A stretch of 20,000 nt of DNA from Catajapyx aquilonaris. Lineage: Eukaryota. The position numbers and the translations under genes are program-made. The stretch is taken from the NCBI GenBank assembly GCA_000934665.2, contig JYFJ02002037.1:44691-64690 (forward strand), written 5' to 3'. The notes beneath the pieces are model-generated. The model worked only from the letters and a program-made list of their open reading frames with translations. It had not been told where the DNA came from and ran no database searches. Shown in pieces: positions 8,375 to 18,119 of the stretch; the first letter of the stretch is position 1; the number at the start of each line of letters is the position of its first letter.

Positions 8375-11228
8375 GAGGGTGAGCAAGGTCACAATTAGAA
8401 CCTTTAAAAAAAAAAAGTCAGGATCGTAAACGCATTTTGGCATATCGTAAAAACCGGCACGAATTATGTCATAAGTCTCATAACATCCCCCCAGTCCTTG
8501 TTACGCCAAAATTTTTGCCAATTGCAGAATGGAATTTTTTCGATGTCAAGATTTTTGAACCCCACCCACCCCCACCCACAGGAAGCTTGTACCCGCATCA
8601 ACCCCCAAGACGCTCAAAATTTTGGAAGCTTTCCAGACACTTCCGTTCGTTACCCTCCTCTTTTATTCCTGCTGCTATTTTTCCATCTCCGCCTTACGCA
8701 AATGCTCATCATGGCAATGATATTGCTCACACCAGACCTTGCAATAACATACCCTCATACAGGAAAATGTACCCTATAAACAGTACCTGCTAATTGTTGA
8801 ATTTAAAATTGGGCAAATTTATTTAAAAAAAACACACACCGGTCCAATTATTATATTCCAAACAAATGGCGACAGTCCCGTGCAATACAATGGGCTTAAA
8901 TAAACCTGAATCAGTCTAACTCAATATGTCAGTTGTAAATTAATTAAGCCACTTACATCTCCTTATGTAATCAAGCTGACAATGCAGACAGTTTGAATAT
9001 AAAAAAGAGCGCAATAAATGCTGATTATGCAACCGTGGCCACAAAGTGGCTCAACAAAACTCATGGCCAACAAATTGGCAGTCAGATTGTCAGCGGGGGT
9101 TGGTTGGGTAGGGGGGGTGTAGGGGGTGGGTCGGTGGGTGTTTGCTACCTTGAACTGACCCGAGGAGGTCGTAGGGAAGTTTGTGAATCTATAAGCCGAG
9201 GAATTGGGGGAGGGGGGGGGGGGTGAGCCAAGGGGAAGGGGACACCTCACATCTGTCCATGACTTCCTTTTTCTTCAAAAGGAGAAAACCTTCAACTTCC
9301 CCGCATTCCTAAACCAATTCCTGTGACCTCCACGAGGAATTTTTAACATTTTTAGAGGCCGTTTCCTTGCAGTTTTTCCCAGCCCACTTTCGCCTTGGGA
9401 ATTCGCAATAATTTCTCCTAAACGCATTTCAGCTTGGAACATCGATATATATATATATATTTTTTTAAAGTAATGCCCGTACCCTACTAGTGTACACAAA
9501 AAATAGGGTGGACGAATAGTTCATACCGCATATTTCAATTTCAGCGTGGCACATGTGCATGACGCCATGAGCAATCATCCGTTAACCAGAAAATGCCATT
9601 CAGATATCATCAGATATGTGGTAACTCAGATAATGTCGATGGGATTACAAGTAGTAATGAATCAAGTGTCTATATTTGTTCCGATTTATATGTAACCACT
9701 AAAAACCCCCACACACAAAACTGAAATTAGGGAAGTGAAATTCAAGCCCATGAGCGGCCTTGCCAAGGTGTGCTGTGCAACGGAATATATGGGCACCATT
9801 TTTTTTAAATTGCTTTTCATGTCAAGTTCCAACAATGCGGCCAGCGATTACTGACCAAATTAATGTCACGAGAAATCCGATTAGGCTCCAGAATTACGAG
9901 GTGGAGTTTTTAATATGTCTTATTCAATCACCTGTTATCAGGTATCGCAATGAGTGTGTGGCATGCGCCCAACCCGTATTGTTTGGACGAGGTGGGTGTC
10001 AAGTGACATGAAAAGTAGCTATTCAGACGTGCCGCACATTGTTACGGAACAATGTGTATGCTCTAGGAAAAAAAATTATCGTCGCCCTACACATCAGCTC
10101 GTAAATCACATGTACGCACTCGTCAAACGAGCCTAATCGCCACATTGGTAGTACTACGTCAATGACAAACTAGATATTTCATTGCCCATTCAAAGTACTG
10201 GGAAGAAGAAGAAAAATGTCTGAACAGCTCGAATGACTTTTCGTCAATTCGCTCCTGGTATGGATGGAATGGTACTCAGGAAATACCCATCGTGTTACAA
10301 ACACGCCTGAAATTTTACACGTTCCTGTCTGCGTAGTATTGCAGATATTAACACGAACTAGGCTTAATCACACCTTGTACGACCATGTGTGCTGCAATAT
10401 ATCTGAATGTATCATGTAATTACTAGGATATATGGCCTGCCTTCCTAACCTTAATCCTAGCCTGTAATTGCACTGGACAAGCAATGCTAAGGTCGCGAAT
10501 CTTTTCAAGTGATTTTAATGCATTTTAATGACAGTAATTATTATCCCTGTATTTACCTCAATTTCATGTTATTTCCCGCATCCAAATTGCAAGGCACGTG
10601 ATTGTACCGTAAAAAGAAATGCTTTCCTTGTATGTTATCTCAGAATTCCAGGTACACCAGTGAAACTGTCAATTAATTTAGGTATGGCTTCAAAGAACAG
10701 GGTTTTTTTTTTTGGGGGGGGGGGGGGTTTCAACCCATTTTGGTTTGGCGCCGGGCTGATTTTTAAAAAACCAAAACACATTCTTATATCCTTAACTCTT
10801 GCATATAAAAAAAAAACTGCGACTGACCAACTGGTTCTCTCCCGCTTCCTTCGACCCATGCCGCATTCTTCTCCCCAGGTGTCAGCACCCACACCTCCCA
10901 CCCCCTACATTAATGTCACGTTTTTCCTGCCTCCCAAAATCAGAGCCTACGAGAAATTCTTGCACCCTCTTCATTCGACATGTGCGTTGACACACAGTGA
11001 TGCCACTGACCACATAGTAAATCTAGAACATGTGCATCTGACAAATATTTAGGGGTCTGGCATTCCCCCCACATACGACTGTCACATTACTCGTTCCCCC
11101 CCTCATTTCTCGCGGCACGAGGAATTCCATGATCCTATCGCTGACGTCGATCCATGTGGCCCATCCCTCCCTTGGTAAGAATGTCACCTGTCCTCCCATG
11201 GAATGTGTCCTCAAAAATCAGCATGTAC

Positions 11229-11413
11229 CTGTCTCTTGGGTCGATCCATGTGGTCTGTCTCTTGTTGTGGTCGATGAAGTACAGCTTCCCGTCATAATCC
11301 TGTCCGACATCCCAACCGGCCGGAAGCGGGATGGACCCCCCAATCCCTGGTCCCATCCCGTCTCCATTGCACCTACTGCTCCTGCTGTTGCCGCTGCTGT
11401 TGCTCCGGGGCAT
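11229..11413 (-). CDS. kibra: Kibra/WWC family protein, first coding exon (start codon + WW domain 1)
   Basis: ATG at 11413 (context ACG-ATG) reads MPRSNSSGNSRSSRCNGDGMGPGIGGSIPLPAGWDVGQDYDGKLYFIDHNKRQTTWIDPRD-R, matching the Kibra/WWC1 N-terminal pattern PLPxGW...DxDGKxYxIDH...TxWIDPRDR. Ends at AG|GTACAT donor (phase 2); 185 nt. Confidence 0.95.
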
Positions 11414-11850
11414 CGTCCGAATAACCCGCGCGCGGACAAGACACCCATGCACTTCACCTACGCTGAACCACTTTGTAGGCGCGGGCTTATGCTACTGGCC
11501 CCCGCGGTCTGCCTCACCACCACTCCGATCACACAGACACCCCGCGCGGGACCACCGATTCACGCACACATCGCACCCACACCACAGCCTCCCAACTACG
11601 GGTCCGCTCTGGGGGCCATCTTGAGAAAAAATGGCCATTCGCTGCCTGCCAGACTGCACTAGGGGGAATTCAAGGGAGGGGAGGGGGGGAGGTTTGAATC
11701 CTCCAGGGGTGGGGGGGAGGATGGGAATGTGATAGCGTAGCGGTTATTTTTAGGTAGCTGTTGGAAGTAGCGGCTACTAGAGGGAGTCGACAGTACATTC
11801 CGGGGAAGCCTTTCATTTTATCAGTGCATTCCGAGTGGGAAATGCTTTCT
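11414..11850 (-). promoter_or_regulatory. Putative 5' UTR and TATA-less core promoter of kibra
   Basis: GC/CpG-rich stretch directly upstream of the start codon; Inr-like GCAGTC (minus, 11657-11652); YY1/Pho-like GCCATCTT near 11615; TEAD hexamers at 11724, 11796, 11827. TSS position is inferred only. Confidence 0.5.
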
Positions 11851-12170: not shown

Positions 12171-12512
12171 CAGGGAGCATATACTACATAAGAGGCGCAA
12201 ACTTCTGTAGGCGCCTTTGATGTTCGCGTCTCTCTGTTTATGGCGTTGCCAAGGCTGGCGGCCATTTTGAAGTGTGTGGAACGCCAACGAGGCATAAATA
12301 GGGTCCGCCATCTTTGATGGTTTTGGCGGCCATGGCAACTACACGGCAATAACACGCGCTAATCAAAGATGGCGGACCCTATTTTTGCCTGTACCCTATT
12401 TATACCTCGTTGGCGTTCCACACACTTCAAAATGGCCGCCAGCCTGGGCAACGCCATAAACAGAGAGACGCGGAAATCGAATGTTGGCGCCTCTTTATAT
12501 GTATGCTCCCTG
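12171..12512. mobile_element. Foldback MITE (CAGGG-ended; P- or hAT-like)
   Basis: Arms of about 150 bp (CAGGGAGCATA...CCGCCATCTTTGAT / ATCAAAGATGGCGG...TATGCTCCCTG) are near-perfect inverted copies with small indels; flanks CTAACGT / GTAACGT resemble a 7-bp TSD with one mismatch. Confidence 0.8.
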
Positions 12513-13486: not shown

Positions 13487-13810
13487 GGGTGGCCGGCGCT
13501 GGTGGTCTGGTGGGGTTAGCGCGCTAGCCTCTAGACCCGTGGGTTCGAACCCGGCCGAGGTCGGTGACTTTTCTCCGGGTGGTAGAAAAGTGAGAGTGCG
13601 CCTTCCTTCGGAGGGGAAGTAAAGCCGTCTCGGTCCCGTGTGCTTGTGACATTACGCGAGTGCACGTTAAAGATCCCCAGAGTGGCCAAATTTCCAGGAG
13701 AAGGAGCGCCCCCTGGCGTCGGTGTTTAGCCTCAGCAGCAGAAATAGGCCCCACCAGGAGTGGCCCCACTGATAAGGTGGAGGATTGGTCTCTCTCAGCC
13801 AAAGTAATAT
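13487..13810 (+). mobile_element. tRNA-derived SINE with Nin/Deu-like core
   Basis: A box TGGTCTGGTGG (13503-13513), B box GGTTCGAACCC (13542-13552). Body CCTTCGGAGGGGAAGTAAAGCCGTC...GTGCACGTTAAAGATCCCCAG resembles, from memory, arthropod SINE cores. 3' end uncertain; TGGAGGATTGG at 13476 and 13778 may be the TSD. Confidence 0.8.
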
Positions 13811-14150
13811 ATATGGGAGGGGGGGATCTGGTTCAGTAATGGATTTTTATTATTTTAGGGGCGGTAGCCCCTAAGTAAGGCCGTACAACAATTTTCAACA
13901 ATTAATTTTTTCAACATCTTCTTGTTGTTGTTGTTACGCTTTTTTTATTCGCCCAAACTCAAGTTCTGCTGTTGGTAGAGCTTCCACATTTTGAACACAG
14001 ATCCCCACCGTCGCACAGTGGGGTATTTGGGCCGAAAAGTTGGTCGAAATTTTTTCTGTCGGCTTTTGCTTCTAAAATGCTCTGATTCATTAATTTATGA
14101 AGTAATAGGGGAAGTAAAGTAGTTTTTGGTGAGAAAAAGGCTGGCAGTAT

Positions 14151-14346
14151 AAGTGGACCTTTACTGGCACAAGCAATATGTACGAATTACTCCATTTCGT
14201 AAGAAACGATTGCGGATTTCTCATGAATCGTAGCCAATTTTGGGTTTTTATTGTCATATTCGTGATCAGAACCTTCAAATCATTAAGAAATGACTACTTA
14301 AGTCGGCAACGCCGGCAATAGAAGCGGACCTTTACTACTGGTAACT

Positions 14347-14417
<71 letters not shown>

Positions 14418-14530
14418 CTAGTCAGTTATGTAAAAAAAACTATTACGGATTCCTCAGGATTCGTAGCCAATTTTGGATTTTCATTGTCATATTCGTGATC
14501 AGCACATTGAAATCTTGAATAAATGTCTAC
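14151..14530 (+). repeat. Diverged internal tandem duplication inside the Transib-like element
   Basis: AAGYGGACCTTT at 14151 and 14322; TCGTAGCCAATTTTGG...ATTGTCATATTCGTGATCAG at about 14228 and 14461; second copy interrupted by (AT)n. Confidence 0.75.
14349..14415. repeat. (AT)n microsatellite
   Basis: About 33 AT units inside the Transib-like element. Confidence 0.99.
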
Positions 14531-15572
14531 TTTAATCTTGAAGTTTGACTTGTTGTATCAAGTCATATAATTGTCTCCATACCATGACTTTGACTCCTGA
14601 TGACCCTAGTTGAAAGAGAGAGAAAAAAATAGTCGGAAAAAAGAGATGCAAAAATTTACGTTAACAGCACAGGAGAAAAATGAGGGGGGAAATGAAAAGG
14701 CGCGAAATGGCGCGTCAGATTCTTTCCTAGCTATAAAATAGAAAGCTGACTCTTCAAAATGTCATAAATAAGACAGATGGATCAGAGTGGGAACCATAAC
14801 TTAATCATGTTTGAATATTTCACATTTGGCGAAAAAATTATTGCATAATTTCGAGGACTAATAATTACTTATAGCCTAGTCATATTATTGTAAGAAATTC
14901 TTTAAAATGAAGTACACACCTTCTTCTGAAGCTTCCATATTGGAACAGTTCACATATATTTTGTATAACTGAAAACAACACTAATGAATGTGTCGCGCCG
15001 TAAATTGCGCTTGAAATTAGCTAAATAATACGCGAACTGTCTTCAACTTTCAACTGCTGGTACAGACGAAGGGTTACACCTATGAGAAGTACAACTGTAT
15101 GTCATAATAGACTCGTCATTCATCTGATCCAGGAAACAAATTTTATTGGAATCCGTAACATTCAAAAAAATCAAATTTTGTCCAGCTTTTGAGGCCAAAT
15201 ACTACACTGTGCGTCATGAAGTGCATTCCTACCATTTGCAGCTAAACTCAATTCCTCTTCAAAATGCCGCAAAAATTTTAAAATCACTAAAATATACGGT
15301 TCTATTTTTTTGCTCAATAACTATTCGGAATTTGGTTTCTTCATCAAAGGGCCGAATGAGCAGTAGGATGGTGCAGATCTATGTTCAAAACCTCACAGTT
15401 CCACCTCCTGCAGGATTGAAGTTATGCTTTTTTTCACAAAAATTTTTCCATCAAATACTTCATTTGTTCATGATTCCATCACCTAGCAATGTCAATTCTT
15501 ATTTACACCTCGCCATATTGTTAGAGCGAAATGTTACCCCACTGCTTTGGAGTGAACGGATTGTACTCATTA

Positions 15573-16302
15573 CAGTTGAATCCGGATATAACAGCCTCGG
15601 CTATAACTACAGACTTTTGGTTATAAAGGCCGGTCCCGACATGCTTCGTCCATAAGGCCCCGTGTATTTTACTCCCAATTAACGGACTCATTTTCACCTC
15701 ACCTCGGGTAGAGCACACCATTTCTTGGCCCTCGGTGGGAAAATATAGTTTTCCAGATACAAAATTTGCACAAAGGAGACGGCAGAAGAAAATTACGGAT
15801 ATTTTGGTCCTTTATCATTTTCGGGTGAGCTAATGTTATTAAATTTTTGACAGATTTCATTAATCGGTATGTAGTCTAGTAGTGCATATTGCAGCCATAT
15901 TACCGAAGCAGGTTGGTGTAGGGGATAAGGAGCCGGCCTGCTAATCGGGAGGTCCTGGGTTCGAGTCCCGGGCCCGGAAACCCTGACCATGGTTTTCTGT
16001 GGTTTTCCATGGTCCCCCCAGGACAATTCCGGGGTCGTTTCCATAAAAATAGGCCACAGCCTCTTCCTTCCTTCCCTATCCCTGGTCCCATCCAATGGTG
16101 GTAATCCACGCCCCTAAGGGAGCCAAAGGCTCTAGCACGGGGTATGATAAATAAAATAAATTAATTAATAAATAAAATATTGCAGCCATATTGAAAGCAG
16201 AAATCTCTGTTTTCATTGTGTGGCGAATTGGCTATAACAGACCTCGGTTATAACAAACTTTTTCCGCAGTCTCTTGAAGTTTGTTTTATCTGGATTCAAG
16301 TG
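15573..16302. mobile_element. Tc1/mariner (pogo/Tigger-like) MITE containing a nested SINE
   Basis: TA|CAGTTGAATCCGGATATAACA ... TGTTTTATCTGGATTCAAGTG|TA: imperfect TIR with TA TSD and repeated subterminal TATAAC motifs at both ends. Confidence 0.8.
15902..16176 (+). mobile_element. Full-length tRNA-derived SINE, recent insertion
   Basis: A box TGGTGTAGGGG (15914-15924), B box GGTTCGAGTCC (15958-15968), A/T-rich (ATAA)n tail, perfect 16-bp TSD ATATTGCAGCCATATT (15886-15901 and 16177-16192). Body GGTTTTCTGTGGTTTTCC...AGGCCACAGCCTCTTCCTTCC recalls insect Lm1/Talua-type SINEs. Confidence 0.92.
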
Positions 16303-16311
16303 TACCATTAA

Positions 16312-16906
16312 CCCCTTCGCTACCGGCTATATCGCCATTGCCATTGCCATCACCAGGTATTACCAGCCAACTCTTAAGCTGATTTAATTATTAAATTATG
16401 CTACAGTATATGCTGAATATCTACCTTGAGAAACGTGCCAGACGAATTTGCTGAAATCGTCGCATTTCGCGAAAATTAAGTAAGGTTGGGAGTTTTCAGA
16501 TGTGACGGAGGCAAGTCGCAGATAAGTATTGATTGAATTCTTGCAAAGTACCACGATTTCATCAAATTCGTCTGGTACAGTTCTCAATGTACATATTCCG
16601 TATATTTTAGAGTATAGGCTATTTCATGATAATTAAATCACACTAACCGTTGGCTGGTAGCATTCGACTTTCGTTTTTTTTACGACTATCTCTGTGAAAG
16701 TCATTTAGGGACTTCTAAGCGACAAAATCATCTCCAATACATTCATAGTGCAGACTGTATAGTGTAGAGCATAAACGTGTTAGTATGATATGATCCTGCA
16801 TGTATCACTGTAGCTGTTATTATTTGTAAAATATCTTGTCCTTGTCTTCAGAGTACGTGTAAGCGACAACCTAGACGATTGCAGTATATCTGGTATTGCG
16901 AAGGGG
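16312..16906. mobile_element. piggyBac-like MITE
   Basis: TTAA|CCCCTTCGCTACCGGCTATA ... TATATCTGGTATTGCGAAGGGG|TTTAA: CCC-starting imperfect TIRs at TTAA-like sites. Confidence 0.7.
16363..16657. mobile_element. Foldback MITE nested in the piggyBac-like element
   Basis: TA|CCAGCCAAC ... GTTGGCTGG|TA, with matching inverted blocks along the arms (TGATTTAATTAT/ATAATTAAATCA; CCAGACGAATTTGCTGAAATCGT/ACGATTTCATCAAATTCGTCTGG). Confidence 0.7.
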
Positions 16907-16927
16907 TTTAAAAAAAGAACTGAAATA

Positions 16928-17700
16928 AGAGCAAAAACATTCCCTTGAGTGAAAAAAGGGTAATAAGACCTCCGTGGCGGAATGAAAGTACTGAAACAAG
17001 GCAGGCGCACGTAAGACCTTCACCAATTGATTTAAGCTGTACCATAGGTCTTACTCAAGCAATTCTAAAGTACTGTATGGAAGGGCTCGTAAAAATTACT
17101 GCTGCAAACTACTCAGAGCAGTATGTAGGGTTTTATTTTGAAAAGAAAAAAAATGGGAAAAAAACTAAACCCATCCTAACAGACTTGGCTCAATCGAAAA
17201 GACCCTCTCAAATTCGCCAATTAGCGTTTATATGTGAAAAGTTAAACATTAGAGTTAAAATCAGCATCTAAAAGGGGTGACGATTCTTCATTATGAATGT
17301 TTCATGGCAATAATTTGCACCAATCGTATAGAAATTCAATGTGCTTAATATTGAAGTTCCTAATTTCAGAAAACACTTATATGGAGTGGCTCATGGAAAA
17401 TTAATGGGTGGAATTTTCGTTGTAGTACTAGTAACTATAGTTACTGGTAATTTAGCAGTACCATTGCACTACACTGGTACTGCTAAGTTAGAAGTAACTA
17501 GTAGTACGACGAAAATTCCACAAATTGTTTTCGGTAAGGAGACTTCATGAGCAGTAAATTGGAAATTGCTTGAGTAAGACCTATGGTACAGCTTAAATCA
17601 ATTGGTGAAGGTCTTACGTGCGCCTGCCTTGTTTCAGTACTTTCATTCAGCCACGGAGGTCTTACTACCCTTTTTTCACTCAAGGGAATGTTTTTGCTCT
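16928..17700. mobile_element. Non-autonomous DNA transposon with ~140-bp near-identical TIRs
   Basis: 16924-17064 is the reverse complement of 17564-17704 with 2 substitutions seen (mirrored in the duplicated ORF text SEKRV[I/V]RPPW[R/L]NESTETRQAHVRPSPIDLSCTIGLTQAI); TA on both flanks. Confidence 0.85.
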
Positions 17701-18119
17701 TATTATATTTCCTTTTCATCAGATGACATACTCCACTAATCCTTCTAGACCCCACTGCCGAAGGGTCATCTTCTTCTTCAACCTCCTCAGACATGGCCAC
17801 CACCATCTCTTCCTCCTCCTCCTCCTCCTCCTCCGCTTCCGCCTTCTTGATCTCACCAAGTGTGTCTTGTATGAGAGTAGAGTCATCATCAAAGCAAGAA
17901 GGGGTCTCCTCCTTCAAGAGAATCTGCCAGGTCTGCTCTGTTGTGATCTCACCATCTTCTTCATTCACTTCCTCCTCCTGTATCTTCAGGATCAAAGACA
18001 TGGTCCTGCAAACACAAGAGTGGAAGTCATGTAATCATGTCAAGTAACACACAAGTCATGGCAGATGAAGAGGAGGAATATTTCTCTTAGATTATCACAT
18101 CACCACTGTAAGTTTTTAA

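Follow-up and report, generated by a model that had tools for sequence, protein, structure and literature searches.

A non-autonomous Transib family with two A-tracts in each end in the genome of Catajapyx aquilonaris

Introduction

Transib transposons are known relatives of the antibody-gene recombinase RAG1, and in RAG-like (RAGL) elements a convergent RAG2L gene lies between RAG1L and the 3' end. A locus in the genome of Catajapyx aquilonaris raises the question of whether the ends of a Transib-like element may hold a precursor of the 12/23 pairing of recombination signals. The window analyzed here is a stretch of 20,000 nucleotides (contig JYFJ02002037.1, positions 44,691 to 64,690 of the forward strand). 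It contains an element which an initial annotation described as Transib-like, with V(D)J signal-like ends at both 12 and 23 spacing, and from which it proposed that the genome harbours, or harboured, an autonomous Transib or RAG1-like partner, possibly of an undescribed family that could shed light on how the 12/23 rule arose.

According to the published definition, a Transib end is about 38 bp long and is built of a heptamer followed by 23 bp and then by a nonamer rich in A (Kapitonov and Jurka 2005, PMC1131882). The same paper describes five Transib families with one 12-like and one 23-like end, and double A-tracts are visible in the mosquito Transib ends in its Figure S4, published in 2005. 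Asymmetric families have been reviewed (PMC8355894), and most Transib families are described as having symmetric ends (PMC8289069).

Results and Discussion

Boundaries and layout of the element

The element occupies positions 14014–15211 (1198 bp) and has imperfect inverted ends of 39 bp, in which 31 of 39 bases pair (Table 1). The exact CACAGTG reported at both tips by the initial annotation was confirmed, starting at 14014 on the left and, on the minus strand, at 15211 on the right. The flanks are CGTCG (14009–14013) and CGTCA (15212–15216). Between the two arms lies a filler composed of two direct repeats (14201–14304 and 14434–14537, 84% alike) with an (AT)33 microsatellite (14349–14415) between them. 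The filler unit was also found as tandem copies in three loci without Transib ends; in L098, L099 and L100, tandem units of 140–230 bp are located approximately 70–110 bp from a common CACTATAAGA terminus, which we take to resemble a CACTA-type end.

Table 1. Features of the window element and its flanks (positions in the window)
Feature	Position	Strand	Remarks
High-copy host repeat, outside element	13850..16500		Contiguous in 24 other copies
Left TSD copy CGTCG	14009..14013	+	Single CGTCG in 18/24 empty host sites
Left TIR (parent Transib 3' end)	14014..14052	+	Heptamer CACAGTG; window-copy A-tracts at 22–25, 34–36
Left arm, 125 bp, final bases of parent 3' untranslated end	14014..14138	-	Matches in L119, L134
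Filler, unseen in parent	14139..14550		Two 104-bp direct repeats and (AT)33 microsatellite
Transib transposase first-codon remnant	14550..14605	-	About 18 codons in window copy
Right arm, 660 bp, parent 5' end	14551..15211	-	85–89% identity to other copies; orientation; N-terminal remnant
Pyrimidine tract and AG before remnant	14606..14632	-	Conserved in 18 distinct sequences
Right TIR (parent 5' end)	15173..15211	-	Heptamer CACAGTG; A-tracts at 22–25, 33–36
Right TSD copy CGTCA, one CpG transition	15212..15216	+	C8012 copy at same host site keeps CGTCG

The host repeat surrounding the element consists of three segments (13850–14013, 15212–15901 and 16177 to at least 16500), and is itself interrupted by a SINE-like insertion of 275 bp (15902–16176) that ends in an A-rich tail and is flanked on either side by a duplicated stretch of about 15 bp. 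Other repeats were also observed in the window: a SINE-like repeat at 13500–13810, a related copy of which truncates the parent fragment in L134 (see below); a 266-bp element with 89-nt inverted arms (94%) at 12216–12481; and, at 16912–17716, two inverted arms of 153 nt (96%) separated by 499 nt. Besides, a minus-strand frame at 11135–11491 encodes a WW-domain-like peptide and is probably an exon of a host gene, presumably Kibra-like.

Copy family and target sites

The genome (G000, 286 Mb, 20,583 contigs) was searched with each arm, which yielded at least 62 and at least 41 matches (40 of 98 and 40 of 47 candidates scored, respectively), and a search with the end pattern gave 43 exact matches versus none in the reversed control. 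Among the first 100 loci, the heptamer was intact in at least 29 left and at least 34 right ends; one left end that lacked an intact heptamer was set aside from this count. A 5-bp duplication of the target site (TSD) was present in all 11 two-ended copies, located on 11 contigs, and was perfect in 10 of them, the window copy being the exception. The family of copies on which the initial annotation had made its reading depend is therefore real. The consensus target derived from 52 independent flanks was CGNCG (C in 48, G in 41, any base, C in 44 and G in 47).

The host repeat (505 candidates in the genome, 40 scored) also occurs in empty form. At the insertion site, 18 of 24 empty copies had CGTCG and 2 of 24 had acquired CGTCA by their own decay. 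These empty sites fix the boundaries of the element and confirm both the TSD and the CpG decay of its right copy, by which the mismatch between CGTCG and CGTCA had originally been explained. The same site was occupied on C8012 (L048) in the orientation seen in the window, and on C4691 (L058) in the opposite orientation, which makes the C4691 insertion an independent event. Thus, one host-repeat site was struck at least twice independently, and several other family copies also had flanks in common. Among the empty sites, two contained a tandem double CGTCG and one had three extra bases (L164, L180 and L173). These three sites may bear excision footprints at a target hot spot; the doubled 5-mer at two host copies fits excision, and could also be one event that was copied, or slippage.

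Family copies differed from the majority sequence by 4.9% (median) and from each other by 8.8% (23 sequences), and the former value indicates that the burst was old. The closest pair, which belonged to a group sharing one flank, was 2.2% apart, and no near-identical pair was present among these sequences. Copies of 2 to 10 kb (longest 10.2 kb) owed their length to nested insertions. For example, the 10.2-kb copy on C2524, considered as an autonomous candidate, proved to be an ordinary copy (L061–L062, C2524:8446–18639) with an intact TSD, into which an LTR retrotransposon had inserted that has ORFs for gag, RT and integrase; the other long copies held foreign insertions. Similarly, ends sharing only about 120 bp with the family (L081–L087) led to unrelated DNA or to a sibling subfamily and contained no transposase, and an ORF within L073 was not Transib and had no structural match. 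The sibling subfamily (L085, C3174:15740–17450, and L086) is 1711 bp long with TSD CGACC, has no filler and has one end starting with CACAATG; it retains 370 bp of the parent 3' end.

Parent transposase and origin of the two arms

A search of the genome with the Pfam RAG1 profile (PF12940) gave no match, which is uninformative, since this profile also misses the intact Transib L124. A pattern for a C-terminal Transib motif detected 15 transposase loci versus none in the control. In L119 (C1331), the C-terminus of a transposase was followed by DNA 86.6% identical to element positions 29–125 (E 1e-26), starting 450 bp behind the transposase stop; the 3' DNA of this locus was also 86–90% identical to the sibling subfamily over about 345 bp. 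In L134 (C4198), a catalytic core with a stop and frameshifts was followed by left-arm DNA (90.8% over 65 bp). These parent fragments with the 3' arm lack the terminal 28 and 60 bp of the element end. Only four parent-lineage loci were found, and all were broken.

Relatives of the parent enzyme (best 120 of 228) had 529–794 aa, typically about 670 aa, and 48–58% identity, and the named ones were from insects. Their N-termini matched a short frame that starts at 14605 on the minus strand of the right arm and is preceded by a pyrimidine tract and AG, and the window remnant was 53% identical to the N-terminus of P0029 over 19 aa. An HMM of 94 homologue N-termini detected the family copies with E-values down to 1e-6, the best reversed control having E 5.6; the first version, built from unaligned N-termini, had given 4 bits and was rebuilt on aligned columns. 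The shortened window copy alone reached only E 4, and most other family copies contain a remnant of about 30 codons with a common in-frame stop. The N-terminal remnant, together with the 3' DNA of L119 and L134, identifies the right arm as the 5' end and the left arm as the 3' end of the parent, in consistent orientations, and both arms descend from a Transib transposase gene. The pyrimidine tract and AG are probably the intron acceptor of this gene, and the right arm presumably comprises the element end, the leader and the gene start with its promoter.

In the genome, no N-terminal half of the parent enzyme was detected (66 of 148 candidates scored), nor was an intact autonomous element of 3–4 kb with family ends, and there is no one locus at which the transposase is linked to both ends. 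An N-terminal Transib fragment behind the truncated end of L119 was considered as a further parent piece and left unassigned, being only 38% identical to the parent's closest relative. No RNA sequencing run was listed with a match. Four DNA runs from one sample (possibly the source of the assembly) gave a single contig over the parent core, at single-copy depth and with no differing letters. An intact parent copy was not seen in the contigs of these runs, which are not independent of the assembly and show presence, not absence. Of the partner proposed by the initial annotation, a formerly present Transib is supported by broken pieces tied to both arms. Since no intact copy was seen in either the assembly or the four-run contigs, "harboured" fits better than "harbours". 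The family is old, and its parent survives solely as broken pieces.

We then considered the alternative that the partner was a RAG-like transposon encoding RAG1L and RAG2L. RAGL elements have a heptamer, a 5-bp TSD and an A-rich TR2 directly after the heptamer (PMC7204232); the exact recombination signal heptamer and the 5-bp TSD are common to these elements and the window family, and the C-terminal piece of the parent matches amphioxus BbeRAG1L (6b40) weakly, with E 4.7e-6. However, the same fragment matches HzTransib (6pqn) with E 2.3e-37, and the parent core, compared with solved structures, also had 6pqn as its best match (E 1.8e-48). As judged by these E-values, the transposase is nearer to arthropod Transib than to RAG1L. 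Besides, the distance from the stop codon to the element end in the parent is only about 480 bp, which leaves no room for the convergent RAG2L gene that RAGL elements place there. The relatives are proteins of about 670 aa, to whose extreme N-terminus the remnant corresponds, and positions 8–10 of the family ends are GGG or TAG, with no A-rich TR2 after the heptamer. A RAG-like partner, as suggested by the initial annotation, is thus largely refuted and retains hardly any probability; judged from its sequence, the parent is a plain one-gene, insect-type Transib and not a RAG1L-RAG2L element.

Other Transibs in the genome

The genome contains many Transib lineages (83 protein matches). L124:4320–7553 is a 3234-bp Transib with a perfect 5-bp TSD and an open 677-aa transposase carrying a GRPK motif. 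Perfect 5-bp TSDs also delimit the Transibs L123:2382–6539, L125:4176–7393, L137:2283–6081, L138:2811–5611 and L148:4151–5867, and all six elements start with CACAGT(G/A); the sizes of Transib elements recovered include 4158 bp and 762 bp. A 740-bp Transib family (L194 and L200, on C312 and C119) has its distal box about 4 bp, not 11 bp, nearer on one end.

It might be supposed that the window family owed its movement chiefly to a different Transib of this genome that is still intact, and that it may remain mobile. L124 has an intact transposase, a heptamer and a distal GGNCAAAA box are common to L124, other Transibs and the family, and the two empty host sites with a doubled TSD are what excision might leave. 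In contrast, bases 8–21 of the L124 ends are entirely unlike those of the family, and the distances between copies given above (closest 2.2%, median 8.8%) include no near-identical ones. We consider such a mover highly improbable and retain the broken parent as the likely source of the transposase.

Signal-like ends and the 12/23 question

In the right end of the window copy, a spacer of 12 leads to TCAAAAGCT and a spacer of 23 to ACAAAATTT, and both agree with the nonamer ACAAAAACC at 6 of 9 positions; a single 6/9 match occurs at 1.4–2.3% of window positions. The left end reached 4/9 at both spacers and 5/9 at spacer 11. Scoring therefore agreed with the initial annotation, which had reported 6/9 twice on the right and weaker A-tracts on the left. 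For the consensus ends, 24 of the 29 left ends and 26 of the 34 right ends were used, after removal of those with indels near the tip (2 left, 3 right) and those sharing a flank (3 left, 5 right). The right consensus kept 6/9 at spacer 12 (18 of 26 copies reached 6) and at spacer 23 (13 of 26), and the left consensus had 4/9 at 12 (0 of 24 copies reached 6) and 5/9 at 23 (3 of 24). The two consensus sequences aligned without gaps and had A-tracts at 22–25 and 33–36 on both ends, so the tracts persist at family level; they differed at positions 8–9 and 18–21. The AA at nonamer positions 5–6 was present in 92% (spacer 12) and 85% (spacer 23) of right ends, and in 54% and 92% of left ends, respectively; the ends thus contain the heptamer and AA-bearing nonamer of a V(D)J recombination signal, which is a weak criterion.

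When the right-end consensus was shuffled 200,000 times, an exact-spacing double match never arose (7.5e-5 with a tolerance of ±1), indicating that it is not a chance product of base composition. This null is nevertheless the wrong one for the 12/23 claim, because other Transib ends often bear the same two tracts; the fair control is those ends. Two A-tracts approximately 11 bp apart were observed in 24 of 34 other Transib ends sampled in the genome, of which 22 had been chosen by a pattern requiring the distal tract (first 100 of 340 matches) and several represent one family, so that these counts lack independence. When all 34 were clustered by single linkage, they chained into 4 groups, and this grouping was not used for counts. 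Among ends found through the transposase, without the pattern, 9 of 12 had both tracts. For example, both ends of L125 have A-tracts at 22–25 and 33–36, as in the window family. By hand count, 4 of 34 ends had at least 6/9 twice within ±1 of spacers 12 and 23, with up to 7+7 or 6+8. Two 6/9 matches at exactly 12 and 23 were found in 0 of 34, and among the ends sampled only the right end of the window family had them. The double A-tract layout is not special to this family among Transibs.

These data bear on the possibility that the ends are dual signals, in which a nonamer-binding-like domain of the transposase would read one end by its tract at spacer 12 and the opposite end by its tract at spacer 23, so that a precursor of the 12/23 rule would be hidden in ends of equal length. 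The exact matches on the right end and the retention of both tracts on the left and right, while positions 8–9 and 18–21 differ, are consistent with this possibility. Similarly, a GRP motif was found near the N-terminus in 104 of the 120 listed parent relatives (of 228), in the form GRPR or GRPK in 12, and the GRPR/K motif contacts the nonamer in RAG1 (PMC10462144); HzTransib has been reported to be sensitive to nonamer position (PMC4840297). However, left copies rarely reach 6/9, so that at either spacing it is the right end that has the better match. Conservation of the tracts is uninformative on use, since the copies evolve neutrally, and the N-terminal domain of the parent was not recovered. 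Moreover, the 11/22 spacing layout is common to other families, and the element has no pair of an RSS12-like short end and an RSS23-like long end: both ends have both A-tracts at identical offsets and show no length asymmetry, including in the left/right comparison of consensus ends suggested by the initial annotation. Since the 12/23 rule is an asymmetry of two ends, relevance of this family to the origin of the rule is not supported, and we regard dual signals as quite unlikely. The A-tract pair most likely represents protein-contact boxes, as in many Transib families, and not a 12/23 pair.

Origin of the family and significance of its ends

Taken together, the element is very probably a non-autonomous Transib cut-and-paste transposon that arose by internal deletion of a one-gene, insect-type Transib, and its end tracts are no 12/23 pair. 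It would combine about 660 bp of the parent 5' end, reaching as far as the first codons of the transposase, with a captured filler and with the final 125 bp at the 3' end. HzTransib uses nick-hairpin cleavage and cut-and-paste transposition with a 5-bp TSD (PMC4840297). By analogy with such published Transib biochemistry, the parent transposase would have moved the element in trans, binding two similar ends and cleaving through a nick and a hairpin at the border of the CAC; insertion would have followed with a 5-bp stagger at CGNCG sites. The two A-tracts, 11 bp apart, would likely be two protein-contact boxes on one helix face at both ends. Several points do not favor this explanation: no intact parent or N-terminal half was found among the loci described above, both 3'-arm fragments lack the tip of the element, and the exact double match was absent from the control ends, whose counts are not independent.

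Two A-rich boxes one helical turn apart are present on both ends of the window family, and such boxes are present in most of the other ends sampled. This observation may suggest that double-box ends are the ground state of 12- and 23-type signals, which would have arisen through loss of an 11-bp unit or of one box, with a domain bearing the N-terminal GRP motif using either box. We consider this reading improbable. If it is true, the right end would be a ready substrate for it, as its two 6/9 matches lie at precisely 12 and 23; and if the A-tracts are alternative sites for a nonamer-binding-like domain, there would be a simple path from symmetric transposon ends to 12/23 signals. The double A-tract feature is not peculiar to the window element, and sequence alone is no proof of alternative binding. 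As found, this is a minor, further non-autonomous Transib family in a Transib-rich genome, with a documented pedigree and a sharp CGNCG preference.

Comparison with known systems

The family shares the characteristics of the Transib superfamily: a 5-bp TSD, a GC-rich target, CAC ends of about 38 bp with an A-rich box about 23 bp inside, and descent from an element, now in pieces, that encoded a RAG1-core-like DDE transposase of about 700 aa. A literature search, which excluded most subscription papers and Repbase/Dfam, yielded no study devoted to double-tract ends or to this family, and no statement of the ground-state reading given above. It is a further non-autonomous Transib family of a known kind and new as a family, although a prior name is possible.

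HzTransib of Helicoverpa zea (6pqn and related PDB entries) is the nearest solved match of the parent core, and both have 5-bp TSDs. HzTransib is an active element whose ends show little resemblance to the nonamer (PMC4840297), whereas stops and frameshifts disrupt the parent of the window family. RAGL transposons (ProtoRAG, PflRAGL-A) and vertebrate recombination signals resemble the window family in the heptamer, the 5-bp TSD and the RAG1-core-like catalytic domain; unlike them, the family is without RAG2L, TR2 and spacer asymmetry (10 bp in PflRAGL-A, 27/31 in ProtoRAG).

Closer counterparts are TransibN1_SP, TransibN1_DP, TransibN1_DM and Hopper, which are described with CAC ends of about 38 bp in equal layout, a distal GCCAAAA-like box at the same place, GC-rich 5-bp TSDs and non-coding bodies of 0.5–1.5 kb (PMC1131882). 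TransibN1_SP also has CGGCG/CGACG sites, akin to the CGNCG of the window family (PMC1131882). The window family differs from these 2005 non-autonomous families in its sequence, its imperfect (31/39) ends and its remnant of the transposase N-terminus, and its proximal tract is A where the fly families have a T-tract (PMC1131882). Two A-rich boxes are also present in the long ends of Transib5, Transib2_AG and TransibN1-N3_AG (PMC1131882, PMC8355894). When scored by hand from Figure S4, the 3' (long) end of TransibN1_AG combines the exact heptamer with matches of 7/9 (spacer 12) and 6/9 (spacer 24), and the corresponding end of TransibN3_AG reaches 8/9 at spacer 11 and bears a second A-tract at 23; these long-end double matches are as good as that of the window family. 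In Transib5, Transib2_AG and TransibN1-N3_AG, however, a short end is paired with an end approximately 11 bp longer, whereas the window family has two ends of the long type.
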